From: Candidatus Multivoradales bacterium
GTDB taxonomy: Bacteria > Acidobacteriota > Thermoanaerobaculia > Multivoradales > JAHEKO01
Assembly: GCA_965223155.1 (NCBI GenBank)
Contig: CBDCVR010000014.1
Span: 1,267,881 to 1,331,880 of the forward strand
Direction of reading: 5' to 3'
DNA: 64,000 nucleotides
The number at the start of each line of letters is the position of its first letter. Positions within the stretch are counted from its first letter, which is position 1. Under the pieces are notes generated by a model. It had not been told where the DNA came from. It did not search any database and saw only the letters and a program-made list of their open reading frames with translations. The position numbers and the translations under genes were made by a program. This document shows, piece by piece, positions 6,374 to 39,813 of this stretch.

Positions 6374-6413
6374 CGTGGAGTCGCTTTCTTGGATATCCCT
6401 CGGATCTTGACGC

Positions 6414-9967
<3,554 letters not shown>

Positions 9968-9971
<4 letters not shown>

Positions 9972-19244: not shown

Positions 19245-19259
19245 TGGCACTGCCCTTGC
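19245..19259 (+). promoter_or_regulatory. Sigma-54 (-24/-12) promoter
   Basis: TGGCACTGCCCTTGC matches TGGCACnnnnnTTGC exactly, 50 bp before the ATG at 19310. Confidence 0.8.
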
Positions 19260-19309
19260 CCTTCCTCCACATAGAGCGCTAGAGCGACAGCTCCAGAGAT
19301 TTCCGGCCG

Positions 19310-21481: not shown

Positions 21482-21648
21482 CGACCCGTCGATAGCCCGC
21501 GATAGGTGCCGCGGCCGCGCTCGCGCCGTGCCCGCTTCCTGCCGGCTGGCCCGGTCTCCGCCGGGCCAGCGGCCGCGGCTTGCCGTGCCGGTCCGTTTCC
21601 GTTTTACACTACGGCCAGCAATCCCGGCGGCCGCCCACACCGGACCTT

Positions 21649-23021: not shown

Positions 23022-26000
23022 CTAACTGACCGCGGCCTCGTCGTCGATGTCGGTGGCCAGGGCGTGGAGGACTCTCTCGTGCTCGCGGACCAACTCGACG
23101 AGAAGGTCGGCGACGTTCGGTGCCGTACCGGCGCCGTCTTCGATCTCGGTACAGATCTCGGCCAGGCGGCTGGCGCCGATCATGGCGCTCGAGGATCGGA
23201 ACTTGTGCGCCAGGTAGGTCAACTGCTCGTGGTCACCGGCCGAGGCCGCCGATCCCATCAATTCGACCTGCTCGCCCGACGTCGTCCGGTAAAGGCGCAG
23301 GATCCGCAGCGCGCCTTCCTTGGACAGCGGATCCCAGAGGTAGCGCTTCTGCTCCTCGAGATTGATCGGCGAGTCCGCATCCGGGGAGACCCCTGCCTCG
23401 GCCCCGGAGGGCACGAGCTTGAGGCCCGAGAACCGGTTCTCCGGGCTCACCTTGGCAGGCATCGGCTGCACCTCCTTGCGAACCGCCGGCAGCCAGCGAC
23501 GCAGAACGGCGAAGAGCTGATCCTGGCTGAAGGGCTTGCTTAGGTAGTCGTCCATACCGGCGGCAAGACACTTCTCGCGCTCGCCCGCCAGCGCGTGGGC
23601 GGTCATCGCGACGATCGGGACCCGGAGCGTCTCGGGCCTCGAGCGAATCTCGTTGGTGGCCGTGTACCCGTCCATGTGTGGCATCTGGCAGTCCATCAGA
23701 ATGAGGTCGAAGCTCTGGGCGTCTAACGCTCTCAAGGCTTCGATGCCATTGCTCGCGACTTCCACGGTGCCACCCAGGCCTTCGAGCATTCCGCAGACTA
23801 CGTCCTGGTTGATCTCATTGTCCTCGACCAAGAGCACCCGCCGCTCGTGGAGATTGGGCGGCGACGCCGCGGCAACCCGGGCCAGGGCCTCGTCGGTGCG
23901 CATCCGGGAAGTGCTGGCCTGGCGCTCGAGGCGCACCTCGAACCAGAAGGTTGAACCCTCGTTCCAAGTACTATCGACGCCGATCTCGCCGCCCATCATC
24001 TCGACGAACGCCCTGGAGATCGCCAAGCCCAAGCCGGTACCGCCGAACCGGCGCGTGGTCGAGCCGTCGGCTTGCTGGAAGGTGTCGAAGATCACCTCGC
24101 TTTCCTCGGAGCTGATGCCGATGCCGGTATCGCGCACCTCGAAGCGGAGCTTGACGTCGGCCTCGGTTGATTCCACCGGTTCGACTTCGAGCGAGACGAA
24201 TCCTGAATCGGTGAACTTGACTGCGTTACCGACCAGGTTGATCAAGATCTGGCGCAGCCGGGTAGGGTCTCCGACGAGCTTCCTCGGGCAGCGCTGGAGC
24301 GCGGAGGAGCGCAAGACGAGCCCCTTGCGCCCGGCCTGCTCGTCAAAGAGGCCTAGCACCTCGTCCAGGACTCCCTGGAGGTCGAAGGCCACCTCCTCCA
24401 ACTCCAACTTGCCGGCCTCGATCTTGGAGAAGTCCAGGATCTCGTTCAGGATCCCGAGCAGGTTGCCGGCCGAATCCCGCGCCTTCTCCGCGCAGGCCGC
24501 CTGGCCGGCGGACAGGTCGCTATTCATCAGGAGCTCGAGCATGCCCAGCACTCCGTTCATCGGCGTGCGAATCTCGTGGCTCATATTGGCCAGGAACTGG
24601 GACTTGGCTCGCGAGGCGCTCTCGGCGTGCTCTTTTTCTTTTTGGAGGCGAATCATGTCGGTGACGTCGGTGCCCGAGCTGAGGGTTCCGGCCGCCCTGC
24701 CGTCGTCGCCGCTCAGATACGTCGTTTGCCAGGAAATGACCCGCTCGTCTCCGCCCCGCGTACGCACTCGGTACTCGGAGGAACGCGGCGCTTTGGCACC
24801 CACCAGGCTCCGTCGCACGACCTCCGGCTCACAGACGAAGGACTCGAACCAGTTGCGGCCGATGAGATCCGCCTCCTCATAGCCAAGGAGCTGGCAGCCC
24901 TTGCGGTTGACGAGAACGATCTGCCCGTCCACGTCCAGCACCAACATGATGACCTCGGCCACCTGAAAGTAGTTCTGCGCCTTGGTCTTCTCACGAAAGA
25001 GCGCTTGCTCCTTGGCGACGCGGCGCTGGATCTCATCCTCCAGGGCGGTATTGGCCGCCGCCAGCTCGCGGGTTCGCTGCCGCTTTCGAAGCTGACCGCG
25101 CAGGTAGTACGCGGCCCCCAGCAGCACCGCGATCGAATAGCCGACAAACGCCCACCAGGTAGCCCATGGCGGTGCCAGCGCTCGCAATTTGAGGGTCAGT
25201 CCTTCCCGGTTCCAGACCCCGTCGTTGTTGGAGGCCTGGACGCGAAACGTGTACTCGCCCGAGTCTAGATTGGTGTAGGTCGCCCGGCGCCGATTGCCCA
25301 GGTCAACCCAGTCCTTGTCGAAGCCTTCCAACTTGTAGCGGTACCGGTTGCGCTCGGGCGCGGTGTAGTCGAGGGCCGCGAAATCGAACGTCACCATCGA
25401 GTCGGTATGTTCCAGAACCAGCTCCTCGAGCTGGGTCACCGGACGATCGAAGATCGCCTCCTCGTTGAGCTTCAGAACCCGGGTCAGAAACACCGGCGGT
25501 GCGTGCGGATTGGTTCGAATCTGGTTGGGATCGAAGACGTTGAATCCGTTGAGCCCGCCAAAGAACATGGTGCCGTCGCGAGCGCGCAACGCGGCGGCGA
25601 AGTTGAACTCCTCGCTCTGCAGGCCGTGGCTGGTGTTGTAGTTGCGAAACGTGCCGGTGGCGGGATCCAGAACCGCAAGGCCTCGATTGGTACTGAACCA
25701 GAGTTGGCCGTCGTCATCCAGCAGCGACCCATAGACCGTGTGGCTGGAGAGCCCGTCCCGAGGAAGGTACCGGGAGAAGACCGTCCGGCGCGCGCGGCGA
25801 TCGCTCGCCGCCCACCGGTTGAGCCCACCCCCCTGGGTGCCGATCCAGAGGTCGCCCACGGCGTCCTCGACGATGGTCCAGGCATGCTGCGAGCTCAGGC
25901 TGAAAGGATCCTCGGGATCGTAGGTGAAGTGATCGAAAGTCCCCCGGTCCCGGTCCATGCGGTTCAAGCCGCCGCCGTCGGTGCCGATCCAGAGCATGCC

Positions 26001-27590
26001 GTTAGCGTCCTCGTAGATCGCGACCACCCGATCGCTGGACAGGCTGGCCCCGTCCTCGCCGTCATGGCGATAGGCCGAGAACGACTCACCGTCGGCACTC
26101 AATTGATTGAGACCGCCGCGATAGGTGCCGACCCAAATCTGGCCGTGAGAGTCCTCGAAAATCGCGGTCACGCCATCGAAGCTGAGGCTCGTGGGGTCAG
26201 ACGGATCGTGGCGAAAGTTCCGGAAGTGGCCGGTGGCGAGATCGAGCATGTCCAGACCGGAGGCGACCGTGCCAATCCAGACCCGGTCCTGCGTGTCGAC
26301 GTAAACGGAAGCGACGCGGTTATCGCTCGGCCCCCCCCTCACGTTGGACGGATCGTGCCGATAGCGGCGAAAGCGGCCCGTCCCGCGATCGAACACGTTC
26401 AGGCCGTCGACGGTGCCGATCCAGATCCGGCCGGCCGAATCCTCACTGAACGAAGTCACGTAGTTATGGCTTAGCCGGGCCGGATCATCGGGCTTGGCGG
26501 TGAAATGGGGAAACGTCCCACTCAACGGGTTCCACTTGTTGAGCCCGTCGTCGGTACCCACCCAAACGACGCCGCCCCGATCCTGGAACAGGGACTTGAT
26601 GCGATCGTGGCCGAGGCTGTAGGGATCCGCTGGATCGTGGCGATAGACCCGGAAGTCCCTGCTCGCCGGATCCCAGGCTCCAAGTCCGGTGTCCGTGCCG
26701 ACCAGGAGCAGGCCGGCGCTGTCTTGAAAGATTGCGTTGACGGCCCCAGGGGGCAGGTTCGATCCGGCCGAATCGAAGCGCTCGAAGGTCCCGGTCGCGC
26801 GATCGAACCGGTTCAGCCCCTTGTCGGCCGTACCGATCCAGAGATCGCCGTTGCCGTCTTCGAAGAGCTGTACCAGCCGGTCGCTCGACAAACTCGCCGG
26901 ATCGGCTGGATCGTGCCGGTACTGCGTGAACAGGCGGGCACCCACGTTCAGGACGTTGAGGCCGCCGCCGTCGGTCGCGACCCAGACGCGCCCGGCGCCA
27001 TCCTGATGGAGATCGCGAACATGCCCGTGGCTCAAGCCGGATGCGTCATCGGCTATCGCAGGAAAACGGTCGGCCTGACCCGTCTCCCGATCGAAACGGT
27101 TGAGCCCACCGCCATCGGTGCCGATCCAGAAGTCTCCAGCCCGATCCTGGAGGATGACCCGAATGCGGTTGCTGCTGAGGCTTTGCGGATCGTCGGCGTC
27201 GTGCCGAAAATGCCGGAAACTGCCGTCGACCGGATTCAAGCGGTCGAGGCCGCCGGTGTCAGTGCCGATCCAGAGAAAACCGTCTTCGTCCTCCACGATG
27301 GCTCGAACACTATTGTGGGACAGGGTCGCCGGATCGGCCGGATCGTGGCGGAAGAGCTTGAACTCATAGCCGTCGAAACGATTGAGGCCCTCCTGGGTGC
27401 CGAACCAGAGGAAGCCGTCCCGGTCCTGGGCGATGACGTTGACTGCCGCTTGCGACAAGCCCTCTTCGAGCGAGACTCTCTGAAACCGCGTCTTGGTCTC
27501 GCGCGTGTTGCCAGACACAGGCAAGGCGGCCATCACCAGGATGGCCGCCAAACCCTTGAAAACGCGAAACTGAAACGACCGAAACATCAC
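23022..27590 (-). CDS. Hybrid sensor histidine kinase: periplasmic beta-propeller (Reg_prop) repeats + Y_Y_Y, TM, PAS, HisKA, HATPase, REC, Hpt
   Basis: Many ED..G.LWIGT..GGL repeats, YRYKLEGFDKDW, FLANMSHEIRTPMNG, GGTGLGLAI, LILMDCQMP, LAHKFRSSSAMIGA. Confidence 0.95.
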   Translation of the reverse strand: MMFRSFQFRVFKGLAAILVMAALPVSGNTRETKTRFQRVSLEEGLSQAAVNVIAQDRDGFLWFGTQEGLNRFDGYEFKLFRHDPADPATLSHNSVRAIVEDEDGFLWIGTDTGGLDRLNPVDGSFRHFRHDADDPQSLSSNRIRVILQDRAGDFWIGTDGGGLNRFDRETGQADRFPAIADDASGLSHGHVRDLHQDGAGRVWVATDGGGLNVLNVGARLFTQYRHDPADPASLSSDRLVQLFEDGNGDLWIGTADKGLNRFDRATGTFERFDSAGSNLPPGAVNAIFQDSAGLLLVGTDTGLGAWDPASRDFRVYRHDPADPYSLGHDRIKSLFQDRGGVVWVGTDDGLNKWNPLSGTFPHFTAKPDDPARLSHNYVTSFSEDSAGRIWIGTVDGLNVFDRGTGRFRRYRHDPSNVRGGPSDNRVASVYVDTQDRVWIGTVASGLDMLDLATGHFRNFRHDPSDPTSLSFDGVTAIFEDSHGQIWVGTYRGGLNQLSADGESFSAYRHDGEDGASLSSDRVVAIYEDANGMLWIGTDGGGLNRMDRDRGTFDHFTYDPEDPFSLSSQHAWTIVEDAVGDLWIGTQGGGLNRWAASDRRARRTVFSRYLPRDGLSSHTVYGSLLDDDGQLWFSTNRGLAVLDPATGTFRNYNTSHGLQSEEFNFAAALRARDGTMFFGGLNGFNVFDPNQIRTNPHAPPVFLTRVLKLNEEAIFDRPVTQLEELVLEHTDSMVTFDFAALDYTAPERNRYRYKLEGFDKDWVDLGNRRRATYTNLDSGEYTFRVQASNNDGVWNREGLTLKLRALAPPWATWWAFVGYSIAVLLGAAYYLRGQLRKRQRTRELAAANTALEDEIQRRVAKEQALFREKTKAQNYFQVAEVIMLVLDVDGQIVLVNRKGCQLLGYEEADLIGRNWFESFVCEPEVVRRSLVGAKAPRSSEYRVRTRGGDERVISWQTTYLSGDDGRAAGTLSSGTDVTDMIRLQKEKEHAESASRAKSQFLANMSHEIRTPMNGVLGMLELLMNSDLSAGQAACAEKARDSAGNLLGILNEILDFSKIEAGKLELEEVAFDLQGVLDEVLGLFDEQAGRKGLVLRSSALQRCPRKLVGDPTRLRQILINLVGNAVKFTDSGFVSLEVEPVESTEADVKLRFEVRDTGIGISSEESEVIFDTFQQADGSTTRRFGGTGLGLAISRAFVEMMGGEIGVDSTWNEGSTFWFEVRLERQASTSRMRTDEALARVAAASPPNLHERRVLLVEDNEINQDVVCGMLEGLGGTVEVASNGIEALRALDAQSFDLILMDCQMPHMDGYTATNEIRSRPETLRVPIVAMTAHALAGEREKCLAAGMDDYLSKPFSQDQLFAVLRRWLPAVRKEVQPMPAKVSPENRFSGLKLVPSGAEAGVSPDADSPINLEEQKRYLWDPLSKEGALRILRLYRTTSGEQVELMGSAASAGDHEQLTYLAHKFRSSSAMIGASRLAEICTEIEDGAGTAPNVADLLVELVREHERVLHALATDIDDEAAVS

Positions 27591-29294: not shown

Positions 29295-31121
29295 TTACTC
29301 CTGATCGACCCATTTGTTGGTTCGCACCGCGTCGGTCGCGGCGAAGGTATCGGTCCAAAGAAAGCCGTCGGTCCACAAGAAACCGTCGGTCCAGAGAAAG
29401 CCATCGGTCCAGAGAAAGCCGTCGGTCCACAAAAAACCGTCGGTCCAGAGAAAGCCATCGGCAAACGCCGCGGCATCGGTCCAAAGAAAGCCGTCGGTCG
29501 ACGGCGAGGTGTCCGTCCAGAGGAACCCGTCCAGGCCTTCCAAGTAGTACGTCCCGTCCTCGGTCACCCGAGCCCGGCCGACGTAGTGCTCGACCCCGGC
29601 CAGATCCCGGTCAATGTCCAGGCCCTGGTTGGCGCAGAGACAGTCGTCCTTGGCCTTGAAGCGCTGCTCGACCGCCTCGTAGGCGTCAATGAGTCCCGCG
29701 CCTTGCTGAAAGACGCTGGCCGCGAGCTCACCCGTCTCGGTCAGCGCAGGACGCGCGGTCGCCATCAGGCGAAACTTGACTTCATCGGGAGTCAGAGAAG
29801 GGTGCTCTTCCAAAACGAGCGCCACGACACCGCTGACCACGGCGGCAGATTGGGAGGTGCCGGACATCATGAAGTAGAGGCCACCGTTGTGGAACTCGGG
29901 ATGCTCGTTCGCCAACGTCGAGAACACGCTCATCAGTGAAACGATGTGACCTCCGGGCGCCAAGACGTCGGGTTTGACAAAGCCCTCGGCCGTCGGTCCG
30001 GCGGCCGAGAAGTAGGTCAGCCGATCGTCGGTCCGGTCCGCGGGGGTGAAGTTGTCGGTCATGGCCCCCACCGTGATGACGTAGGGCACGTTGCCCGGTA
30101 CGCCGATCGTCATGGCGTCCGGGCCCCCATTCCCCGCTGAAGCCACCACCACGATGCCCGCACGCCAGGCCTCCATGACGGCCTGGTTGAGCGGATCGTC
30201 CCAGTAGTGGGAGCGCGCGGGGGCGCTGAAGGACAGATTCAGGACCCGAATGCCGTAGGCGTCGCGATTGCGCACGATCCAGTCGATGCCCCGGATGACG
30301 TCGGCATAGCTGCCCAGGCCCTCAGCATCGAAGGCCTTCACCACGACCAGATCGGCGTCTGGCGCGATGCCGTTGTAGCCACGTCCATCGTCGCTTATCC
30401 GGCTGTTGACTGCGACCGACGCGACGTGTCCGCCATGACCGAACTGGTCGGTTCCGAAAACCGAGGTACCGTGATCGGTGTCGCTGATCGCGTCGTAGTG
30501 TCCTAGAAGCCGAGTCTGCCCGTCCGAGTCCAGGTAGACGCCCGAATGGGAGGCGAACCCTGAATCCAGAACTGCGATCGTCACCCCGCGCCCTGTTGCC
30601 GCGCGCTCATGCACCCGATCCGCCTCGACTCGCTCCGGAAACTCCACGTAGGGATCGAGGTGCGATTCGAAGAGGGCTCTCCATGCGCTGTAGGAGCTGG
30701 TCCCCTCTTCCCCACCTGTAGACGTTGTGGTCGTCTCTTCGCTGGATTCCCCGGCCGTTGCCGATTCAATGTCCTCTGAAGTGCTACTACTTGCCTCACC
30801 TGAGGTCCGAGAGCTCCTCGTCTTCTTGGCGCTCGAGACCGTCGAGTCCTCGTAAACCCGGATGCCGGAACGGGTCTCGAGGTGATCGCGTTGGGCGGCG
30901 GTCAGATGGGCGCCGACCGCCCGGATCACGGTCAGCCGGTGGGTGACCGAGCCCCCCACGGCTTCCACCGCCTCGGCGGCCAGGTCGACGTTCTTCGCCT
31001 GGACGATGTAGGACTTCTTGGCCGAGGCATCTTCGGCCTCGGCTCGCATCGCCAGAGCAGGCACCAGCAGGAGGGCGCCGATCCAGGCGAGGACGAGAGA
31101 TTGCACACGAGTTCGATTCAC
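29295..31121 (-). CDS. Secreted S8 serine peptidase with C-terminal GFLWTD array
   Basis: Triad IAVLDSG / GHGGHVA / SGTSQS. GTG start at 31121 after an AAGGA RBS gives the signal peptide MNRTRVQSLVLAWIGALLLVPALA, downstream of the sigma-54 promoter. Confidence 0.92.
   Translation of the reverse strand: MNRTRVQSLVLAWIGALLLVPALAMRAEAEDASAKKSYIVQAKNVDLAAEAVEAVGGSVTHRLTVIRAVGAHLTAAQRDHLETRSGIRVYEDSTVSSAKKTRSSRTSGEASSSTSEDIESATAGESSEETTTTSTGGEEGTSSYSAWRALFESHLDPYVEFPERVEADRVHERAATGRGVTIAVLDSGFASHSGVYLDSDGQTRLLGHYDAISDTDHGTSVFGTDQFGHGGHVASVAVNSRISDDGRGYNGIAPDADLVVVKAFDAEGLGSYADVIRGIDWIVRNRDAYGIRVLNLSFSAPARSHYWDDPLNQAVMEAWRAGIVVVASAGNGGPDAMTIGVPGNVPYVITVGAMTDNFTPADRTDDRLTYFSAAGPTAEGFVKPDVLAPGGHIVSLMSVFSTLANEHPEFHNGGLYFMMSGTSQSAAVVSGVVALVLEEHPSLTPDEVKFRLMATARPALTETGELAASVFQQGAGLIDAYEAVEQRFKAKDDCLCANQGLDIDRDLAGVEHYVGRARVTEDGTYYLEGLDGFLWTDTSPSTDGFLWTDAAAFADGFLWTDGFLWTDGFLWTDGFLWTDGFLWTDGFLWTDTFAATDAVRTNKWVDQE
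29349..29528 (-). repeat. 18-bp register array: 8x GFLWTD with two in-register spacers (TSPSTD, AAAFAD)
   Basis: Units like gtcggtccagagaaagcc with synonymous variation; ten consecutive 18-bp units. Confidence 0.97.
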
Positions 31122-31200
31122 GAATTGAATTCCTTGAGTTCTCTTGAGGACTTGTTCGATGGTTTGCTGGGCGTTTCTCCGCCGGACGCAGCCTGCTAGG

Positions 31201-31215
31201 GCAAGGGGCATGCCG
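31201..31215 (-). promoter_or_regulatory. Sigma-54 (-24/-12) promoter for the protease-protease-kinase operon
   Basis: Minus strand CGGCATGCCCCTTGC: GG-N10-GC spacing with GGCA and TTGC, 80 bp before the GTG start. Confidence 0.7.
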
Positions 31216-31346
31216 TTGGCGTATTCGCATAACGCGATGTATCCCCAGAGTGGATTCACACCCGGTATCCCTTGCCATCAAGGGACTTTCTTCGGAGCAC
31301 TTCGAGCAGAAACAATCGGAGCCAGATCTTGGCCGGCGGTCTTCCG

Positions 31347-31390
31347 GGGAGTTTTTCCCGAGCTTCCGCGGGTGGCAAGGAAATCCTCCC
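31347..31390. promoter_or_regulatory. Pair of imperfect 13-bp palindromes, candidate enhancer sites
   Basis: GGGAGTTTTTCCC (31347-59) and AGGAAATCCTCCC (31378-90), 31 bp apart and 130-175 bp upstream of the sigma-54 promoter. Confidence 0.4.
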
Positions 31391-31610
31391 GGGAGCTATG
31401 GCGAGCCGGCCCCGGTCGCCGGCTCGCCACCGGCTCGGACCGTCGAGATGAATCCCCGTGGCGTGGGCGACGGCGCCGCCAAGTCCGAGAACCTCTCGCC
31501 ACCCTACCCTTGAACTTCTCGCGGGCCCACCCGTTCGGGTATGGTCACCCAACGCCGTGAGCGGTTAGATGACACGGAGGGCGGCGCCGTCGCTCGAGAG
31601 GAGGTTGCGA

Positions 31611-32201
31611 ATGTCCAGTGATCGGGAATCATCCAGGCGGAGTTTCGTCTCGCGCCTGTCCTCGGTGGCCCTCGTCGGCGGCTTGGCCAGCGCCTACGGC
31701 ACGCTTGCCGCGTTCATGGGGCGCTTCGTCTATCCGGCAAGGCCCCGCCAGAGGAGCTGGATGTTTCTCTTCGACGTCGATCGGCTGGCGCTGGGCGATG
31801 CCATCGACTACCGCGCTCCGGACGGCGCCGCGGTGACCGTCGCCCGTCAGAGCGAAGGACGCGGGGAAGAGGCGTTCGTCGCGCTTTCCGGAACCTGTCC
31901 ACACCTTGGCTGCCGCGTGCACTGGGAGCCCCAGAACGATCGCTTCTTCTGTCCCTGCCACAATGGGACGTTCGACTCGGACGGCACGGCAACCGGCGGA
32001 CCGCCCTTAGAGGCCGGGCAATCCTTGCCTCGATACCCCCTCAAGGTGGAGCGTGGTCTCGTCTACATCGAGGTTCCGACCGAGTCGCTGTCCGGCCAGC
32101 AGGCCCGTAGCGCCGGCCGCATGATCGAGCTCCGGAAGATCTCGGCCCGGCCCGGATTCGATCCCTGCCTCGCAGCCGGTAGAAGCTGCAGGAGCGCCTA
32201 G
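31611..32201 (+). CDS. Rieske 2Fe-2S subunit of a Rieske/cytochrome b complex
   Basis: Tat motif SRRSFV plus TM; CPHLGC and CPCH boxes; GGPP...LPRY. GAGGAGG RBS. Confidence 0.93.
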   Translation: MSSDRESSRRSFVSRLSSVALVGGLASAYGTLAAFMGRFVYPARPRQRSWMFLFDVDRLALGDAIDYRAPDGAAVTVARQSEGRGEEAFVALSGTCPHLGCRVHWEPQNDRFFCPCHNGTFDSDGTATGGPPLEAGQSLPRYPLKVERGLVYIEVPTESLSGQQARSAGRMIELRKISARPGFDPCLAAGRSCRSA

Positions 32202-32204
32202 CCC

Positions 32205-33254
32205 TTGAACGCCCTCCAGGCATGGCTCCAGGACCGTCTGCCGATCCAGGCGGACGATCTGCGCGAACTCACCAACGAGCCGGTTCCGAATCACCTGAAG
32301 CGCTGGTGGTTCGCGCTAGGAGGAACGCCCGCCTATCTCTTCGTCGTCCAGATCGTGACCGGCATCTTGCTGGCGATCTACTACCAGCCGGCGCCGGCAA
32401 CCGCCTACGAGTCGGTCCGCTACATCACCGAAGAAGCGGCTTTCGGCTGGTACTTGCGGGGCCTCCACAAGTGGGCGGCCACCTTCATGATCGCCGCGGT
32501 CATCCTGCACCAGATGCGGGTCTACTTCACCGGCGCCTATCGCAAGCCGCGCGAGATCAACTGGATGGTCGGCATGTGCCTCCTGATCTCGACCCTGATG
32601 CTTGGTTTTACCGGCTATAGCCTGGTTTACGAGCAGCTCAGCTACTGGGGCGCGACCGTGGGCGCCAACATCAGCGCCAGCGTGCCGGTGTTCGGCGAGT
32701 TGATGCGCAACCTGCTCCTCGGCGGCGAGGCCTACAACAGCAGGACCCTGTCGCGCTTCTTCATCCTGCACGCGGCCGTCCTACCCACGACGCTCGTCCT
32801 GCTCCTGGTCGTCCACATCGCCATCATTCGCATGCAGGGAGTCACCGAGTACCGGTTCAAGGACGACACCGAGGACAAGCCCAAGCACTTCAGTTTCTTT
32901 CCGGATCACCTCCTGACCGAGATCCTGATCGGGTTGGTTCTCATGATCTTGCTGACTGCCCTGGCGACGATCTATCCGCCGGAGATGGGGCCCAAGGCCG
33001 ATCCGCTGGTCACCCCCGAAGTCATCAAGCCGGAGTGGTTCTTCTACGTCGCCTTTCGCTGGTTGAAGCTCTTCTCGGGCACGGCCGCCGTCCTGAGCAC
33101 CGGCTTCGTCGTTTTCATCATGTTCGTCTGGCCGTTCATCGACGCCGCCATCCGCAAACGCACGCGCTTTCAAGAAGCCAGCATCTGGATCGGCATCGTC
33201 GGAGTCCTGGCCATCGTCGGCCTTACCGTCTGGGAAGCCCTGGTCGCCCACTGA
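32205..33254 (+). CDS. Cytochrome b (b6 + subunit IV-like, fused)
   Basis: RGLHKW...LHQMRV, GFTGYSL, SYWGATV, FFILH...VHI, KPEWFF (PEWY equivalent). Confidence 0.93.
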   Translation: MNALQAWLQDRLPIQADDLRELTNEPVPNHLKRWWFALGGTPAYLFVVQIVTGILLAIYYQPAPATAYESVRYITEEAAFGWYLRGLHKWAATFMIAAVILHQMRVYFTGAYRKPREINWMVGMCLLISTLMLGFTGYSLVYEQLSYWGATVGANISASVPVFGELMRNLLLGGEAYNSRTLSRFFILHAAVLPTTLVLLLVVHIAIIRMQGVTEYRFKDDTEDKPKHFSFFPDHLLTEILIGLVLMILLTALATIYPPEMGPKADPLVTPEVIKPEWFFYVAFRWLKLFSGTAAVLSTGFVVFIMFVWPFIDAAIRKRTRFQEASIWIGIVGVLAIVGLTVWEALVAH

Positions 33255-33286
33255 GCTCCGCTGGAGCCCTCTGAGCGGGAGTACGT

Positions 33287-34939
33287 ATGACCCTTGAAAC
33301 CAAACGCATCGTCATCGCCATCCTTGCTTTCGTCTTTCTGGCTTCGCTGCTCTTGGTCCAGCGCATGGAGATCGTGCGCCGCCAAGCTGAAGCCGGTCTC
33401 AGCAAGGCCCACATCTCGGTGCCCGCAAACTCGAAGGACTGTGTTGACTGCCACGCCGAGGGCAATCCCGGCATCGTGGACCACTGGCGCGGCTCGACCC
33501 ACGCCGAGAAGGGCGTGGGCTGCGTCGAGTGCCACCAGGCCGACGAGCGCGACCCCGACAGCTACCAGCACTACGGCGCGCTCATCGCCACCGTGGTGAC
33601 GCCGCGCGACTGTTCGCGCTGCCATCTCGAGGAGTCCCGGGAGTTTGCTTCCAGTCACCATGCCAAGGGCGGCAACATCCTGGCCTCGCTGGACAACTTC
33701 CTGGCCGAGACGGTCGAGGGGTCCAGGGTTCCCTTCAATCCCCACTCTCCGACCCCGGGCAAGGCCGTAGACGAGGTCAACGGATTCGCCAGCGCCTTCT
33801 CCGGCTGCCAGCAGTGCCATGGGTCCAAGGTGGCCCTTCAGGGCACCGACGGCGAGCGCGTGACGGTGGACGAGCTGGCGCCGGACGAGAACGGATTCCC
33901 CACCAGCTCGGAAGCGGTCTCGCGCATCGTGCGCGACGAGAACGGCGTGCCCGAGTTTCACCCGGGGACCTGGCCCAACACGGGCATCGGCCGCCTCAAT
34001 CTGGACGGCTCCCTGGGCTCGTGCACGGCTTGCCATAGCCGCCACGATTTCTCGCCGCGGCGCGCCCGCCAGCCCGAGAACTGCGGCAAGTGCCACTTGG
34101 GCCCCGATCATCCTCAAAAGGAGATCTTCGAGGAATCCAAGCACGGCGCCGCCTACCGCGACCTCAAAGATCAGATGAATCTGGACGCGACCGATTGGGT
34201 CTTGGGTGCCGACTACTCGGCGGCGCCGACCTGCGCCACCTGCCACATGTCCGGCAACCTCAGAAACGGCGGCGACGTCACCCACGATCCCGGCGAGCGC
34301 ATCTCCTGGACCAACCGGCCGCCGGTCAGCCTGGTCATGGACACCGACGTCGAGCACAAGATCGTCAAGGAGACCGATCCAGCCAAGCGAGAGGCCCTCA
34401 TTCACGATTCGGCCGCCGACAAGCGCGGGCGCATGGCCCAGGTCTGCTCGCACTGCCACACCCCCGACTACGTCAACGCCTTCTACACCCAGTACGACGA
34501 TCTCGTCATCTTGTACAACGAGAAGTTCGCCAAGCCGGGGCAGGCGATCATGGGCGCGCTCAAGGACAGCGGGCTACGCACGCCGACCCAGTTCGACGAA
34601 GAGATCGAGTGGACCTGGTTCTATCTCTGGCACCACGAGGGCCGCCGGGCGCGCATGGGCGCTTCGATGATGGCGCCCGACTACACCCACTGGCACGGCA
34701 TGTACGAGGTGGCCGAGCGCTTCTACATGGAGCTCATCCCGCAGGCGCGCGAGCTCGCCGAGCACGGCGCCGCCAAAGGCAAGCGCTCCCAGGCGCGGGC
34801 GGTCGAAACCCTCATCGACGGCATCCTGGCGCGGCCCGAGCACGCCTGGTTCGAACAGGGAGCCGAGGGCGAGGCCACCAAGATCCGCGAGGAAATGCAG
34901 CGCCGCTACGGCCAGTCGGGCGGCGACGAAACGAGGTAG
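33287..34939 (+). CDS. Octaheme cytochrome c, hydroxylamine oxidoreductase (HAO) family, N-terminally anchored
   Basis: Eight CxxCH (CVDCH, CVECH, CSRCH, CQQCH, CTACH, CGKCH, CATCH, CSHCH); CHLGPDHPQ.EI..ESKHG and RARMGA.M.APDYTHWHG. Confidence 0.9.
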   Translation: MTLETKRIVIAILAFVFLASLLLVQRMEIVRRQAEAGLSKAHISVPANSKDCVDCHAEGNPGIVDHWRGSTHAEKGVGCVECHQADERDPDSYQHYGALIATVVTPRDCSRCHLEESREFASSHHAKGGNILASLDNFLAETVEGSRVPFNPHSPTPGKAVDEVNGFASAFSGCQQCHGSKVALQGTDGERVTVDELAPDENGFPTSSEAVSRIVRDENGVPEFHPGTWPNTGIGRLNLDGSLGSCTACHSRHDFSPRRARQPENCGKCHLGPDHPQKEIFEESKHGAAYRDLKDQMNLDATDWVLGADYSAAPTCATCHMSGNLRNGGDVTHDPGERISWTNRPPVSLVMDTDVEHKIVKETDPAKREALIHDSAADKRGRMAQVCSHCHTPDYVNAFYTQYDDLVILYNEKFAKPGQAIMGALKDSGLRTPTQFDEEIEWTWFYLWHHEGRRARMGASMMAPDYTHWHGMYEVAERFYMELIPQARELAEHGAAKGKRSQARAVETLIDGILARPEHAWFEQGAEGEATKIREEMQRRYGQSGGDETR

Positions 34940-34943
34940 CAGC

Positions 34944-37295
34944 ATGAAACGACGCGAGTTCTTACAAGTGCTGTCCACGGGCGCGGCGGTCGCCGCGTTC
35001 TCGTGCCGAGATCGCGAGGAGGCCGAGCGCCTGGCGGCGAATCGAGACGCCGGCGCGATCGACCCGGCCGACCTGACCTGGGGCAAGGCTCCTTGCCGCT
35101 ATTGCGGCACCGGCTGCGGCGTCGAGGTCGGCGTGCGCGACGGGCGCGCTCTGGCAGTTCGCGGCGATCAGGCCAGCCCGGTCAACCGGGGTCTCCTGTG
35201 CGTCAAGGGCTATCACCTGCCCGGCCTTCTCTACGGTGAGGACCGGCTCCTCTATCCTCAGAAACGCGGCGCCGACGGCAAGCTCGCCCGAATCTCTTGG
35301 GACGAGGCCCTGGATCTCATCGCCGAGAACTACTCCCGCGTCCTGGAGGAGAGCGGCCCCGAGGCGGTCGCCATGTACGGCTCCGGCCAGTGGACCGTCT
35401 TTGACGGCTACGCCGCCACCAAGTGGCTACGGGGAGGCTTGCGCAGCAACAACCTGGATCCCAACGCCCGGCTGTGCATGGCGAGCGCGGTGATGGGCTT
35501 CGTGACTCAGTTTCAGAGCGACGAGCCCATGGGCTGCTACGAGGATCTCGAGGCCGGCGACGACTTCGTACTCTGGGGCAACAACATGGCCGAGATGCAC
35601 CCGGTGCTCTTCAGCCGCATCCTGGAGACCAAGCGCGTGAAGCCCGGCACCCGCATCGTGGACATCGCCACGCGGCGCACGCCGACCTCGGACTACGCCG
35701 ACATGTACGTCGAAATCCAGCCGGGCGCCGATCTGGCCCTTGCCAACGGCATCCTCCATCTGCTGGTCAAGGACGGCAAGGTCAACCGGCCCTTCGTGGA
35801 AGAAAACGTCGTCTTCAAGCGCGGCATCGAGGACGTCGATGAGATCGGCTACGGCTGCTACGGCGACGACGCCGAACGCTATACCTTCAAGGACTCCGGC
35901 CGCAACGCCTCCCTGGCCGAGCTCGAGAGCTTCCTGGCCGACTACACGCCGGAGAAGGTCAGCGCAATCTCGGGCGTCCCGACCCGGCAGATCGAGATCC
36001 TGGCCGAGATCTACGGCAACCGCGACCGAGGCACGGTCAGCCTCTGGTGCATGGGCGTCAACCAGCACGCCCGCGGCACCTGGATGAACAATCTGCTCAA
36101 CGACCTTCATCTCCTGACCGGCAAGATCAGCCGGCCTGGGAACAATCCCTTCTCGCTCACCGGCCAGCCCAGCGCCTGCGGCACCGCCCGCGAAGTCGGT
36201 ACGCTTTCGAACCGCCTGCCCGCGGACATGGTGGTGATGAAGGCCGACCACCGGGCCAAGGCCGAGGAGATCTGGGGACTCGAGCCCGGAACGATCCCGG
36301 CCAAGCCCGGCTACCACACGGTCGACATGTTCCGGGCACTGGTTCGCGGCGACGTCCGGGCGATGTGGATCCAGACCACCAATCCCTGGGTCAGCCTGCC
36401 CAACTTGAACCGGTTCGAGCGCAAGCCCGGGGACGGACGCTTCCTGGTGGTCAGCGAGATCTACCCGACGCCCACCACCGACGTCGCCGACCTCGTCTTG
36501 CCCTCGGCGGCCTGGATCGAGCGCGAAGGCGTCTTCGGCAACACCGAGCGCCGCACCCAGCAGTGGAACCAGCTGGTGCCGCCTCCCGGAGAAGCCCGAG
36601 AAGACGCCTGGCAGATCATGGAGGTCGCCAAGCGCATGGGCATGGGGGGTCTGTTTCCCTACCCCGAGGAGGCCTGGCACGAGCCCATGTACGAAGAGTA
36701 CCGGCGGTTCACACTCGGCACGGGCAAGGATCTGGCCTCATACCAGGAGCTGCGCGAGACCCGCGGCAAGCTCTGGCCGGTGGTGGACGGCAAGGAGACC
36801 CGGTACCGCTACAGCGCCGAGTACGACCCTTACGTCACCAAGGACCGGGGCGTTCATTTCTACAAGGCCAAAGGCTACGGCGAGAAGGCGGCCTTCTGGA
36901 TTCGCCCCTACCACCCACCGGCCGAGGGGCCGGACGACGAGTATCCGCTCTGGCTCACCACGGGACGGGTGCTGGAGCATTGGCACACCGGCTCGATGAC
37001 CCGGCGCACTCCGGAGCTCCATCAGGCGATGCCGGCGGCCACCGTCGAGATCAACCGCGCCGACGCGCAGGAGCTGGGCATCCGCTCGGGCGACCGGGTC
37101 CGCGTCGTCAGCCGCCGGGGTTCGGTCGTGCTCGAAACGGCAATCGACGGCCGCGGCAAGCCTCCGCGTGGGACGGTCTTCCTGCCTTTCTTCGACGAGG
37201 AGCGGCTGATCAACCGCCTCACCCTCGATGCCATGGACAACATCAGCAAGGAGCCCGACTACAAGAAATGCGCGGTGCGCGTCGAACAGGCCTAG
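34944..37295 (+). CDS. napA: Periplasmic nitrate reductase catalytic subunit
   Basis: Tat KRREFL, CRYCGTGC...LCVKGY, GSGQWT, NARLCMASA, WGNNMAEMHP, MGVNQ, SLTGQPSACGTAREVG, PDYKKCAV. Confidence 0.93.
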   Translation: MKRREFLQVLSTGAAVAAFSCRDREEAERLAANRDAGAIDPADLTWGKAPCRYCGTGCGVEVGVRDGRALAVRGDQASPVNRGLLCVKGYHLPGLLYGEDRLLYPQKRGADGKLARISWDEALDLIAENYSRVLEESGPEAVAMYGSGQWTVFDGYAATKWLRGGLRSNNLDPNARLCMASAVMGFVTQFQSDEPMGCYEDLEAGDDFVLWGNNMAEMHPVLFSRILETKRVKPGTRIVDIATRRTPTSDYADMYVEIQPGADLALANGILHLLVKDGKVNRPFVEENVVFKRGIEDVDEIGYGCYGDDAERYTFKDSGRNASLAELESFLADYTPEKVSAISGVPTRQIEILAEIYGNRDRGTVSLWCMGVNQHARGTWMNNLLNDLHLLTGKISRPGNNPFSLTGQPSACGTAREVGTLSNRLPADMVVMKADHRAKAEEIWGLEPGTIPAKPGYHTVDMFRALVRGDVRAMWIQTTNPWVSLPNLNRFERKPGDGRFLVVSEIYPTPTTDVADLVLPSAAWIEREGVFGNTERRTQQWNQLVPPPGEAREDAWQIMEVAKRMGMGGLFPYPEEAWHEPMYEEYRRFTLGTGKDLASYQELRETRGKLWPVVDGKETRYRYSAEYDPYVTKDRGVHFYKAKGYGEKAAFWIRPYHPPAEGPDDEYPLWLTTGRVLEHWHTGSMTRRTPELHQAMPAATVEINRADAQELGIRSGDRVRVVSRRGSVVLETAIDGRGKPPRGTVFLPFFDEERLINRLTLDAMDNISKEPDYKKCAVRVEQA

Positions 37296-37837
37296 CGGGC
37301 CTCACGGTTCTCACTCTGTTCCTCGGGTCGGCGTGTTCCGACTCCTCGAGCCGAGTGGCGGTACCCGATCGGCAGGGAGCTGAGAAGAGCGCGGCCTCGG
37401 TGCGAGCCGAGCGCCGGGCTTTCGACGGCGCGCCGCCGGTCATCGCCCACGAGAACTTCAGCATGACCTGCATCGAGTGCCACTCGGCGGCCGGCCGGCA
37501 CGTCCAGGACGTCGGCTTCGCGCCGCCTTCGCCGCACGAAGCGACCGCGGGCCTGAGCGCCACCAGCCGCTGCGCGCAATGCCATGTGTTCCGCCTCACC
37601 GAGGCGGTTTGGCGCGCCAACGACTTCGTCCCGCTCTCCCAAGACCTGCGGGCCGGGCGCCGGGCGGCGGCCGGAGCACCGCCGGTCCTGCCCCACTCTC
37701 CCTTCATGCGCGAGAACTGCGCCGCGTGTCATACGGGCCCCGCCGCGCGCGAGGAGGTCCGAACCAGCCATCCGGAGCGGCTGCGTTGCCGCCAATGCCA
37801 CGTACAACGTTCCATAACCACGGAGTTTTCACGATGA
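37268..37837 (+). CDS. napB: NapB-like cytochrome c with duplicated diheme module (4 CxxCH), probable lipoprotein
   Basis: GAPPVIAH...CIECH...PH...RCAQCHV, then GAPPVLPH...NCAACH...HPERLRCRQCHV. Signal ends in LGSAC. Overlaps the napA 3' end. Confidence 0.75.
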   Translation: MRGARRTGLAGLTVLTLFLGSACSDSSSRVAVPDRQGAEKSAASVRAERRAFDGAPPVIAHENFSMTCIECHSAAGRHVQDVGFAPPSPHEATAGLSATSRCAQCHVFRLTEAVWRANDFVPLSQDLRAGRRAAAGAPPVLPHSPFMRENCAACHTGPAAREEVRTSHPERLRCRQCHVQRSITTEFSR

Positions 37838-39090
37838 CCCTGCGTACCCGTCCATCCACCCGCCTTGCCGTCGCCATCCTGAGCCTGACGCTCTTGGCGC
37901 CGTTCGCTCTGCCCTTCCCAGCGGCGGCGGACGACCCGAACAACGGCGAGACCGCTTCGCTCGCCGACGCGATTCGAAACGGCAAGGCCGGGCTGGCTTT
38001 GCGCTACCGCGTAGAGAGCGTGGATCAGGACGGCTCCGCCAAAGAAGCCCTGGCCTCGACCTTGCGCACCACGCTTAACTACCGCACCGCCGCCTACCGC
38101 GGTTGGAGCGCTTTCGTGGAAGCCGAGAACGTCGCCGATCTGGGCGCCGATGACCAGCACAACAACGTCGGCTCCGGCTCCCTCGGCAACGGCGTCACCG
38201 ACCGGCCGGTGATCGCCGACCCGGCGCAAACCGAGCTTCATCAGGCGTACCTGCGCTGGACTGGGGACACGACCACGGTCACGGTCGGTCGCCAAGCGCT
38301 CGCCTTGGGCGACCAGCGCTTCGTCGGCCCGGTGGGCTGGCGTCAGAACCATCAGAGCTTCGACGCTTTCGCAATCCACAACCACGGGCTCGACAAGGTG
38401 GTCTTCGATTACGTCTTCGTGGACGAGGTCCAACGCATCTTCGGTGACTCGAAACCGATGGCGAGCCATCTGGCAAGCGCCGCCTTCTCGACCGGCATCG
38501 GCAAGGTCACGGCCTACGGCTGGCTACTGGACTACGACGAGACAGTGGACCGCGCGCTGTCGCGCACGACCCTGGGCCTCGAGCTTGCCGGCAAGCGCAA
38601 TCGCGATCGGTACTCCTGGCTCTACGAGCTCGAGTACGCCACCCAGTCGGACGCGGGCGACAACCCGGCCGACGTCGACGCCGGCTACCTGCACGGCAGC
38701 CTGGGTGTCGCCACCGCAGCAAAGACCACCTTCAAGGTGGGCTGGGAGCTCCTCGAAGGCAACGGCGGCGCTGATCGTTTCCTGACTCCGCTGGCGACGC
38801 TCCACAAGTTCAACGGCTGGGCCGACAAGTTCCTGGCGACCCCCGGAGCCGGCCTCGAAGACCTCTACCTTCAGCTCTCGGGGAGCCGCAACAAGCTCGC
38901 TTGGACGATCAAGGCCCATGACTTCAACGCCGACTCCTCGAGCGCGAGCTACGGCAGCGAGCTCGATGCCCAGCTCACCTGGAAGGGACCCCAGGGCCTG
39001 GTTTTCGGCGTGAAGGGCGCCTACTACGACGCCGACGAGTTCGCGACGGATACCACCAAGCTGTGGCTTTGGAGCGCCTGGAAGCTCTAG
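37834..39090 (+). CDS. Outer-membrane beta-barrel, alginate-export family
   Basis: Signal peptide; LRYRVE.V, GRQ...LGDQRFVG.VGWRQN.QSFDA, TPLATLHKFNGWADKF; aromatic C-terminus. ATGA overlap with napB. Confidence 0.8.
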   Translation: MTLRTRPSTRLAVAILSLTLLAPFALPFPAAADDPNNGETASLADAIRNGKAGLALRYRVESVDQDGSAKEALASTLRTTLNYRTAAYRGWSAFVEAENVADLGADDQHNNVGSGSLGNGVTDRPVIADPAQTELHQAYLRWTGDTTTVTVGRQALALGDQRFVGPVGWRQNHQSFDAFAIHNHGLDKVVFDYVFVDEVQRIFGDSKPMASHLASAAFSTGIGKVTAYGWLLDYDETVDRALSRTTLGLELAGKRNRDRYSWLYELEYATQSDAGDNPADVDAGYLHGSLGVATAAKTTFKVGWELLEGNGGADRFLTPLATLHKFNGWADKFLATPGAGLEDLYLQLSGSRNKLAWTIKAHDFNADSSSASYGSELDAQLTWKGPQGLVFGVKGAYYDADEFATDTTKLWLWSAWKL

Positions 39091-39276
39091 CCGGTATTGC
39101 GAAGTCCCTTAGCGGGACCCCAGAGGTCTCCGGCGTCGGTTTCCGAGCGCGGCAGGCGCGGCGCGTGGTAGCCTCCGCGCGCCGCCACCCGGCGCGCCGC
39201 TCACCGGCCTGCCGCCCGGCGGATCTCACAACGACTGGCCAACGATTGGCTAACGACTGAAAGGACCGTTCGATCG

Positions 39277-39813
39277 ATGATTCGTGGCTACCCGCGCGAG
39301 GTCGTGCTGCGCAACGGCAAGCGCGTCCTGCTGCGCCCGTTCGCCCAGGGCGACGCCGAGGCGCTTTTCGCTTTCTTCACCAAACTGCCCACCGACGTCC
39401 GCCGCTTCGCCTGGGATCACATCGACGACCCCAGAGTGGTCGAGACCTGGGCGCAGAACATCGACTACGCCAAGGTGCTTCCACTGCTGGCCGTGGACGG
39501 CAGCGGCGTCGTCGCCGACGCCAGCTTGCACCGCCGCGAGGGCGGCCCTCTGCGCTTGTCGGCGCGGATCAAGTGGCTCATCCATCCCGAGTACCGGGGT
39601 CAGGGCCTGGGAACCGCCTTGGTCAACGATTTCATCGACATCGGCAGGCAACAGGGCCTGCGCCACCTGACCTGCATGCTGATCGAGGACCTCGAGGCTG
39701 ACGCCGTCGAGACCTTGACCAACCTGGGCTTCGAGAAGTACTCAATGCCCGGCTACGGCACCGATCCCGACGGGGACGCGCACGACATGGTGAAGCTCAT
39801 CCTGGCGCTGTAG
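39277..39813 (+). CDS. GNAT family N-acetyltransferase
   Basis: IHPEYRGQGLGTAL acetyl-CoA motif and LGF. Confidence 0.88.
   Translation: MIRGYPREVVLRNGKRVLLRPFAQGDAEALFAFFTKLPTDVRRFAWDHIDDPRVVETWAQNIDYAKVLPLLAVDGSGVVADASLHRREGGPLRLSARIKWLIHPEYRGQGLGTALVNDFIDIGRQQGLRHLTCMLIEDLEADAVETLTNLGFEKYSMPGYGTDPDGDAHDMVKLILAL

Follow-up and report, generated by a model that had tools for sequence, protein, structure and literature searches.

Which acceptor does a Rieske/cytochrome b complex serve when its genes are joined to those of an octahaem cytochrome c of the hydroxylamine oxidoreductase (HAO) family and of a periplasmic nitrate reductase (Nap)? This question is raised by an operon of a Candidatus Multivoradales bacterium (Acidobacteriota; assembly GCA_965223155.1), located in a stretch of 64,000 nucleotides (nt) of contig CBDCVR010000014.1 (positions 1,267,881 to 1,331,880, forward strand), which is called the window in the following. 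The periplasmic reduction of nitrate and nitrite is commonly held to conserve little or no energy. The widespread arrangement described here probably lets the cell conserve energy during both processes. The analysis revealed that the genes for the Rieske protein, the cytochrome b and the octahaem form a self-standing three-gene unit, which is independent of Nap. We read this trio as a quinol:nitrite reductase of the Q-cycle type, which would also feed Nap and whose product would probably be ammonium, and assign a probability of about 0.5 to this reading. Six open reading frames (ORFs) are packed closely on the + strand at 31569-39090 of the window:

31611..32201 (ORF open from 31569), + strand: Rieske [2Fe-2S] subunit, 196 amino acids (aa) from ATG 31611; PF00355, E 1.3e-10
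32205..33254, + strand: cytochrome b, 349 aa; PF00033, 8.6e-51, and PF00032, 2e-9
33287..34939, + strand: HAO-family octahaem cytochrome c, 550 aa, 8 CxxCH; PF13447, 7.4e-22
34944..37295, + strand: NapA, periplasmic nitrate reductase catalytic subunit, 783 aa; NF010055, 943 bits
37268..37837, + strand: tetrahaem cytochrome c, tandem NapB-like, 189 aa; 4 CxxCH
37834..39090, + strand: outer-membrane beta-barrel porin of the alginate-export/Opr type, 418 aa, signal peptide; PF13372, 5.9e-12

The spacers between these genes are 3, 32 and 4 nt long and are followed by overlaps of 28 nt and 4 nt (ATGA). A GGAGG motif is located 6 nt 5' of ATG 31611, which favours the Rieske start at 31611 chosen in the first reading of the sequence. 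The start of the tetrahaem gene at 37268, which creates the 28-nt overlap with napA, is putative. Since none of the flanking genes is related to them (upstream two subtilase genes on the - strand, downstream a GNAT gene), the operon unit consists of these six genes. The original prediction, made by a model from the letters of the window, had described a tight operon with gaps of 3, 32 and 4 bp and then overlaps, and this was borne out by the ORF calls and the family searches. Its statement that napC, napGH and napD are missing from the operon agrees with the gene content. The names given to the Rieske, cytochrome b, octahaem, napA and porin genes also stood, whereas the presumed napB-like gene encodes four CxxCH motifs instead of two. 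A promoter scan of 31000-39500 yielded no sigma-70-like site, and the 7 terminator-like sites in the same region (4.4 expected) include none that is convincing. Upstream of the operon, in 31260-31610, neither an FNR-type box (at most 2 mismatches allowed) nor a sigma-54-type -24/-12 site (at most 3 allowed) was found.

The first two proteins show the Rieske boxes, the four b-haem histidines and the PEWY-type Qo motif that are characteristic of bc1/b6f-type complexes. The Rieske protein contains a twin-arginine motif and the cluster boxes CPHLGC and CPCH; R9, C96-P97-H98-L99-G100-C101 and C114-P115-C116-H117 are invariant in an alignment of 24 sequences. Its C-terminal tail (window 32120-32201) reads PGFDPCLA. 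A subset of relatives has a conserved GPGHDPCL (loci L004, L008, L011, L014, L016, L032, L036, L041, L057 and L080), and the tail is missing in the Planctomycetota-labelled members of the alignment. The cytochrome b is a fusion in which a b6-like N-terminal part is followed by a C-terminal part resembling subunit IV, and its closest solved relatives are cytochromes b6 (7R0W, 9.7e-54). H88, H102, H189, H204 and P276-E277-W278 are invariant in an alignment of 25 sequences, the Qo motif PEWF being located at 276-279. The paired haem-ligand histidines show a spacing of 14 and 15 positions, which we take to be of the b6 type. An alanine occupies the position of the b6 cysteine in FYCLGG. The operon contains no gene for a cytochrome c1, a cytochrome f or a dihaem c protein that would accept electrons from the Rieske cluster. 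The third gene encodes the HAO-family octahaem.

The octahaem belongs to the HAO family and carries eight CxxCH motifs, which are kept in 80 of 80 relatives. Its closest solved relative is IhOCC from Ignicoccus (4QO5), with 5.8e-45 for the single sequence and 7e-102 for a profile of 43 sequences. In the profile search, Nitrosomonas europaea HAO (NeHAO, 4FAS, 8e-52) and the Tyr-less protein of Kuenenia (6H5L, 5e-49) follow; in the single-sequence search, 6H5L ranks second (2.1e-21). Asp274-His275 align with NeHAO residues 267-268, which we assume to be the catalytic Asp-His pair, and they are kept in all 81 sequences (the window protein and the 80 relatives). In the profile alignment, His468 (PDYTHWHG) lies opposite NeHAO chain residue Tyr467 (GGWTYTEGW) with a posterior of ~0.6. 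In NeHAO, Tyr467 forms the cross-link with the catalytic haem of the adjacent subunit, a role that is also stated in PMC9250108. His468 is kept in 81/81 sequences and Tyr466 in 80/81. NeHAO and IhOCC both have a tryptophan opposite the latter residue. Of the 43 sequences in the wider alignment, 33 carry an aromatic residue at position 466 and just 2 a tyrosine at position 468. By the best alignment, the cross-linking tyrosine of oxidative HAO and HDH enzymes thus seems to be absent, with some doubt left by the posterior of ~0.6 at this spot. The comparison with N. europaea HAO named in the original prediction came out as expected there, with a histidine in place of the tyrosine. The invariant Asp-His pair and the apparent lack of the cross-link would be consistent with a reductive HAO-like protein.

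The N-terminus of the octahaem is predicted by AlphaFold2 as a single hydrophobic helix (residues 3-35) with a predicted local distance difference test (pLDDT) score of 84-92. This helix is almost identical across phylum labels among the 81 sequences, which suggests a specific contact with the membrane. The model as a whole reaches a pLDDT of 58 and has a poor haem core. The ten best Foldseek matches are all of the HAO family, which at a TM-score of only ~0.22 lends weak support.

For prediction of a complex, the cytochrome b, Rieske residues 1-160 and octahaem residues 1-488 (as the partner) were modelled as three chains with their own alignments (25 sequences, 24 sequences and that of the octahaem). 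The model scored 0.70 (0.60, 0.70 and 0.75 in the single runs) compared with 0.24 for the best of 3 controls. The calibration was made on pairs of single chains, where 116 of 157 solved complexes and 2 of 215 mismatched pairs attained this mark; for three chains with own alignments these counts hold only roughly. The runs share at least 15% of the contacts and the partner pLDDT is at least 83. In the predicted interface, the N-terminal helix of the octahaem (1-36) packs against cytochrome b helices (93-109 and 324-346). A solved complex that includes a subunit of the HAO family is not known to us. The anchor helices of c1 and f on cytochrome b are known from solved structures and may inform the model. 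We propose that in this Rieske/cytochrome b-type membrane complex the cytochrome c1 or f is replaced by a membrane-anchored HAO-family octahaem that would be free of the cross-link.

Relatives of the octahaem were searched in a collection with one genome per species, which holds at least 565 of them. Synteny was analyzed for the best 80 (68-80% identity), and the counts of adjacent core and nap genes use only loci with enough flanking DNA to judge. The cytochrome b gene is located directly upstream of the octahaem gene in 70 of 74 loci and the Rieske gene adjoins in 68 of 73. NapA follows directly downstream in 38 of 76 loci, with the tetrahaem gene behind it in 31 of 31. The order Rieske-cytochrome b-octahaem-NapA-tetrahaem recurs in 31 fully judgeable loci with several phylum labels, far above chance, and the conservation of the arrangement assumed in the original prediction is thus confirmed. 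The trio itself is very conserved, with 70-80% identity across at least six phylum labels. By manual count of the labels in the record titles, the 38 Nap-linked and 38 non-Nap loci are distributed over Gemmatimonadota (17 and 0), Acidobacteriota (6 and 13), Planctomycetota (8 and 16), Anaerolineae (0 and 3) and other or unlabelled records (7 and 6).

In the non-Nap loci, 32 of the 130 called downstream ORFs were scanned and proved to be unrelated housekeeping genes. We also searched five genomes carrying the trio without adjacent Nap. NapA was found in none of the five (best score 143 bits, cut-off 904), and neither was NarG at E <= 1e-50. Because the trio occurs without NapA or NarG in 5/5 of these genomes and without adjacent NapA in 38/76 loci, the octahaem is not merely a wire to Nap. 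Earlier it had been cast as a substitute of cytochrome c1 that wires the complex to Nap. The restriction to Nap does not fit the trios that stand alone.

Twelve carriers of the trio were searched for other nitrite reductases. NirS and NirK were found in 0/12 at E <= 1e-20. The NirS control genomes gave no match at this threshold either, but the same family search found the NirS of our own genome at 4e-105. Among the seven Nap-linked carriers, 4 score above the Pfam NrfA cut-off, only 2 of them strongly (404 and 299 bits). In the five Nap-less carriers, all Pfam NrfA matches are at or below about 25 bits and extend over no more than 103 of the 438 profile positions. Since NirS and NirK are missing from all 12 and strong NrfA matches are few, most carriers have no other recognised dissimilatory nitrite reductase.

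Some single loci differ from the common pattern. On one chromosome labelled Thermoanaerobaculia the trio occurs twice (L030 and L045), in neither case with Nap, and the only two cytochrome b genes found in this genome are those of the two trios. In L006, on a Gemmatimonadota-labelled chromosome, octahaem, NapA and tetrahaem are intact; upstream lies a partial cytochrome b (253 bits) with no Rieske match, and no PF00033 match occurs near the octahaem in this genome. This copy may be decayed or misassembled. Six of the 80 loci (L005, L012, L065, L069, L075 and L077) have genes for Rrf2-family regulators at most 4 kb away from the core; no assignment to NsrR, IscR or another subtype resulted, as all equivalog models stayed under their cut-offs for these proteins. 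A cluster of flanking genes named two-component (13/80 loci) turned out to be a heterogeneous single-linkage group, and nothing was drawn from it.

The NapA protein matches PF04879, PF00384 and PF01568 and carries the twin-arginine motif KRREFL at the N-terminus of its translation. It scores 943.1 bits with NF010055, above the cut-off of 904 bits, and 916 bits with TIGR01706, narrowly under the cut-off of 930.55 bits; together these features identify it as NapA. Its PDB matches are 3ML1_A (1.2e-242), 2NYA (3e-237), 1OGY_A (4.3e-237) and the monomeric 2NAP type (2e-182), by which it is closest to NapAB-type enzymes. The small cytochrome next to it is distinct from ordinary NapB, which is a dihaem protein, and reaches 15.0 bits with the Pfam NapB model PF03892 (cut-off 25.1). 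Its halves align with each other (31% identity, E 1e-4). With a profile of 28 family members, the three best PDB matches are NapB chains, namely 3ML1_B (3.6e-4), 1OGY_B (3.9e-4) and 1JNI (1.6e-3). These alignments include the PPxIPH segment; that of 1OGY_B also extends over both haem motifs. Among the 120 homologues listed, 49 carry a PF03892 match and 12 are named NapB by JGI (manual count). Taken together, the four haems, the alignment of the two halves, the NapB profile matches and the PF03892 matches of the homologues indicate a tandem duplication of a NapB-like dihaem module with distant homology to NapB. The protein is probably a lipoprotein, as judged from a hydrophobic stretch ending in a cysteine. 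Its AlphaFold2 model (pLDDT 53) gave no Foldseek match in the PDB at E <= 0.001. Directly 3' of the tetrahaem gene, eight loci contain a conserved gene for a protein of ~190 aa without Pfam or NCBIfam match, which does not occur in the window (L005 at 9287-9868, L006, L007, L010, L011, L016, L038 and L039). Of these loci, six bear the label Gemmatimonadota, another is labelled Longimicrobiales and the last merely uncultured bacterium. The porin also matches the Opr porin model NF033923 (2.5e-6), under its cut-off.

We infer the electron-transfer steps, the substrate and the product of the complex as follows. Quinol would be oxidised at the Qo site of cytochrome b (PEWF). The Rieske cluster would hand one electron on to the haems of the octahaem, and the other would be recycled over the two b haems in a Q-cycle, which would make the reaction proton-motive. 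The octahaem would be the terminal reductase. Nitrite would be reduced at its five-coordinate haem 4, which carries the Asp-His pair, and the product would most likely be ammonium, less likely nitric oxide (NO); hydroxylamine is possibly reduced as well. In our own genome and roughly half of the examined relatives, the tetrahaem would take electrons from the same complex and pass them to NapA, and nitrate would be reduced to nitrite and further by one operon. The porin would let the anions cross the outer membrane.

Beyond the operon, we searched the whole genome (4.0 Mb, 15 contigs, 98.7% complete) at E <= 0.001. NapD, NapB (Pfam), NapG, NapH, NrfA and NirK gave no match, in line with what the original prediction would lead one to expect. 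For NirS the result is the opposite: the genome encodes one (351 bits, 4e-105), a 719-aa form with two extra c domains. Likewise, NapC is missing from the operon as claimed, but one distant tetrahaem of the NapC/NirT superfamily is encoded elsewhere. This protein of 204 aa is the only PF03264 match (44 bits), adjoins MtrA-like and MtrB-like genes and lies far under the NapC cut-offs (39 bits against 310.6 for TIGR02161, 32 against 349 for NapC) and also far below that of NrfH. A tetrahaem of NapC grade is thus found neither in nor near the nap operon. The distant tetrahaem may act as a CymA-like donor to Nap. Its neighbourhood on contig C15 (L002:6595-11338, - strand) is an Mtr/Pio-like set of an MtrB/PioB porin (751 aa), a decahaem (340 aa), the NapC/NirT tetrahaem (204 aa) and a monohaem c, which suggests extracellular electron transfer. 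A NarG (1431 bits), four haem-copper oxidase genes and one ActD gene of an alternative complex III (ACIII) were found as well. As NarG, NirS and the NapC/NirT tetrahaem are present, the operon is one of several possible nitrate and nitrite routes in this genome.

Several points weigh against the trio as a quinol:nitrite reductase. In our own genome, the same three proteins could feed Nap or reduce nitrite in another way. In the five carriers without Nap or Nar, nitrite would have to be external and the substrate could differ. NrfA matches are marginally above the cut-off in 2 of these five (24.5 and 25.2 versus 24.1 bits), which we read as probable cross-hits of other multihaem cytochromes. 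The posterior for the cross-link position is ~0.6, and the nearly invariant Tyr466 (80/81) lies two residues away. The AlphaFold2 models are of low confidence (pLDDT 58 for the octahaem, 53 for the tetrahaem). HAO-family proteins are trimers and Rieske/cytochrome b complexes are dimers, and a rigid 1:1 complex would therefore have a symmetry problem. Finally, the activity of the complex is, for every member, a prediction from the genes.

Among the alternatives, the best surviving one, which we still regard as unlikely, assumes the same complex with another product: the octahaem would make NO from nitrite in a one-electron step or would mainly detoxify hydroxylamine or NO, so that the module would be of the denitrification type or protective. 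The Tyr-less HAOr of Kuenenia turns nitrite into NO (PMC9250108; 10.1101/2025.03.25.645162), its structure 6H5L is the second-best solved relative in the single-sequence search, and our own genome is otherwise that of a NirS-type denitrifier. However, the closest solved relative is IhOCC and not HAOr. In addition, three carriers (G001-G003) have a single match to the haem-copper oxidase family (E <= 1e-20), which is located next to ACIII, and an NO reductase (NOR)-like enzyme is thus not visible in them, NOR types outside the haem-copper family not being sought. Because of these two observations, ammonium is preferred as the product of the quinol:nitrite reductase.

A further explanation, which seems rather improbable, is that of the original prediction. 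Here the octahaem would chiefly be an electron-transferring c1 substitute, whose purpose is the wiring of Rieske/cytochrome b to NapA and the NapB-like cytochrome. The tight operon with translational coupling, the NapA and tetrahaem genes behind the octahaem gene in 31 fully judgeable loci and the lack of any NapC-grade, NapG or NapH match in our own genome are consistent with it. It does not account for the 38 of 76 loci in which the trio lacks an adjacent NapA, nor for the five of five such genomes without any NapA or NarG, and a pure wire would not need the Asp-His pair that is invariant in 81/81 sequences.

The trio might also be a terminal reductase or electron outlet for a non-nitrogen substrate, e.g., a sulfur oxyanion or a metal, with a secondary linkage to Nap. 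Five carriers without Nap, Nar, NirS and NirK, the in vitro promiscuity of multihaem enzymes of this superfamily (PMC9250108) and a porin homologue that occurs within 4 kb of the core in 23/80 loci, including loci without Nap, would fit this idea. Against it, NapA is the only recurrent catalytic neighbour (38/76 loci), and neither the 32 scanned downstream ORFs nor the recurrent flank clusters contain another reductase. We consider this explanation doubtful, and more so than the two before it.

Still less probable is that the trio serves as the general respiratory complex III, whose unusual c subunit would pass electrons to oxidases and further acceptors in the periplasm. The cytochrome b of the trio is the sole cytochrome b in 6 of the 12 carriers (one of these six has two trios), and haem-copper oxidases occur in 12/12. 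In all six carriers with trio-only cytochrome b, however, the ActD gene of an ACIII is located 3-6 kb from a haem-copper oxidase gene, and the same holds for our own genome. Our own genome contains another Rieske/b6/subunit-IV cluster (contig C15:541907-547457, - strand; L084:1907-7457), which is followed by a 977-aa cytochrome with 8 CxxCH and with class-I, c7-like and SoxX-like domains; ActD and haem-copper oxidase genes lie 12-17 kb from this cluster. The octahaem is also patchily distributed. It was found in 18 of 201 sampled genomes of the phylum, our own included, and not in the same-genus or same-family representatives of this sample. Together with the 70-80% identity across phylum labels, this fits a transferred accessory module.

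An oxidative octahaem, i.e., a true hydroxylamine or hydrazine oxidoreductase as the HAO family membership and the database names hydroxylamine oxidoreductase and hydroxylamine dehydrogenase would have it, is very improbable in view of the histidine at the cross-link position, the reductive nearest relatives (4QO5, 6H5L; PMC9250108) and the joining of its gene to a quinol-oxidising complex and a nitrate reductase.

If the trio is a quinol:nitrite reductase, it may form a class of its own among the energy-conserving terminal reductases of nitrite (or hydroxylamine), spread by horizontal transfer, which could be called complex-III-type ammonifier; we hold this to be tentative, with odds somewhat under even. 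It would then supply the nitrite-reducing step in many Acidobacteriota, Gemmatimonadota, Planctomycetota and Chloroflexota that lack NrfA, NirS and NirK. A route driven by Rieske/cytochrome b would raise the energy yield and alter the competition for nitrate and nitrite. The relatives of the octahaem, at least 565 with one genome per species and more than 8000 protein clusters, are annotated as hydroxylamine oxidoreductase, and public pipelines count the octahaem as hao, a marker of nitrification. Metagenome papers take such hao genes as evidence of hydroxylamine oxidation (PMC13335318). If the octahaem is reductive, these conclusions would point in the wrong direction, and part of the reported potential for hydroxylamine oxidation in sediments and soils would be nitrite reduction with a higher H+/e- yield than that of NrfHA. 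It would be unusual in bioenergetics for a catalytic multihaem enzyme to serve as the c subunit of a complex III, a design that has been hypothesised for anammox bacteria and Caldithrix; we found no report of its biochemical demonstration in the literature.

Outside the operon, the window contains further genes of interest. A sequence with one mismatch to the sigma-54 -24/-12 consensus (TGGCACTGCCCTTGCC, 19245-19260, + strand) is located ~50 nt 5' of a response-regulator-PAS-GGDEF-EAL gene (19310-21481). Genes for a sigma-54 activator (21580-23010) and a Reg_prop/Y_Y_Y hybrid kinase of 1522 aa (23022-27590, - strand) are found nearby. At 49053-51080 (+ strand) a molybdopterin oxidoreductase of 675 aa is encoded, which stays under all curated cut-offs (best Fdh-alpha, 198 versus 666 bits), has no Fe4S4-domain match and is without obvious partner genes. 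Two consecutive genes for AcrB-type RND transporters (1073 and 1185 aa) and one for a membrane-fusion protein are located at 3152-11179 (- strand).

Several known systems resemble the operon in part. Caldithrix abyssi reduces nitrate and has no NrfA according to its description, and its nap cluster contains Rieske/cytochrome b and Hao. The same electrogenic route from quinol to Nap and Hao was already proposed by the authors in 2017 (PMC5317091). As in the window, the nap locus (Cabys_2556-2564) encodes NapA, a tetrahaem instead of NapB, no NapC, and Rieske and cytochrome b, and it is adjoined by a Tyr-less octahaem Hao (epsilon-Hao). Unlike the operon described here, it includes NapG, NapH and NapF, shows the order napM-napA...Rieske-cytochrome b-hao and is described without a porin (PMC5317091). 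The tetrahaem NapM is known from Desulfovibrio, Caldithrix and Deferribacter (PMC5317091, PMC6896113, PMC5276818). The Caldithrix Hao and NapM are likened to the window proteins by description only, which does not imply orthology.

In anammox bacteria, the R/b-3 complex (kuste4569-4574) contains the HAO-family octahaem Kuste4574 within a Rieske/cytochrome b complex, where it was proposed to reduce nitrite (10.1101/2025.03.25.645162), as we propose for the octahaem of the window. R/b-3 differs in its location in the anammoxosome membrane, its six-gene unit and the lack of a described link to Nap (10.1101/2025.03.25.645162). In the non-anammox lineages analyzed here, only the three core genes recur, and the neighbours beyond the core are NapA, the tetrahaem, the porin or unrelated genes instead of the extra subunits of R/b-3.

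IhOCC (4QO5) shares with the octahaem the HAO fold without P460. It is reportedly membrane-associated, according to the title of Parey et al. 2016. IhOCC was described as an octahaem nitrite reductase without P460, and the Tyr-less HAOr converts nitrite to NO and does not oxidise hydroxylamine (PMC9250108). In contrast to the window protein, IhOCC is archaeal, and the identity is ~24% in the Foldseek alignment. A Rieske/cytochrome b partner of IhOCC was not found in the accessible part of PMC4429474. N. europaea HAO (4FAS/1FGJ) likewise has eight haem motifs, the same fold family and the Asp-His pair. The window protein differs from it by the histidine aligned with the cross-linking tyrosine, by the predicted N-terminal membrane helix and by being encoded with a quinol oxidase and Nap instead of c554/cM552.

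For Nap, the original prediction had stated that electrons are normally drawn from quinol without a Q-cycle, and the published work qualifies this. In Campylobacter jejuni, Nap depends on QcrABC with an H+/2e- ratio of 2 (PMC6195509). There, a Rieske/cytochrome bc complex instead of NapC feeds Nap in an electrogenic way, which was shown experimentally, whereas here it is deduced from the genes. The Qcr complex of C. jejuni, unlike the complex of the window, is a general one with an ordinary c-type subunit, is encoded apart from nap and is described without an HAO-family subunit (PMC6195509). The NapA of the operon is closest to heterodimeric NapAB-type enzymes (3ML1, 1OGY; 1.2e-242), and its small cytochrome is distantly NapB-like. 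The differences are a partner with four haems in two NapB-like halves, which stays under the Pfam NapB cut-off, and the lack of a NapD match in the genome.

The literature searched, to which most subscription journals do not belong, contained no description of such an operon from Acidobacteria, Gemmatimonadota or Planctomycetota; only the Caldithrix and anammox papers came up. The idea of a Rieske/cytochrome b-Nap-Hao route is thus already known from Caldithrix abyssi (2017), resembles anammox R/b-3 and is still hypothetical. New are the six-gene form without NapGH and NapD and with tandem NapB and porin, and the three-gene core that stands alone without any nitrate reductase, together with its breadth.

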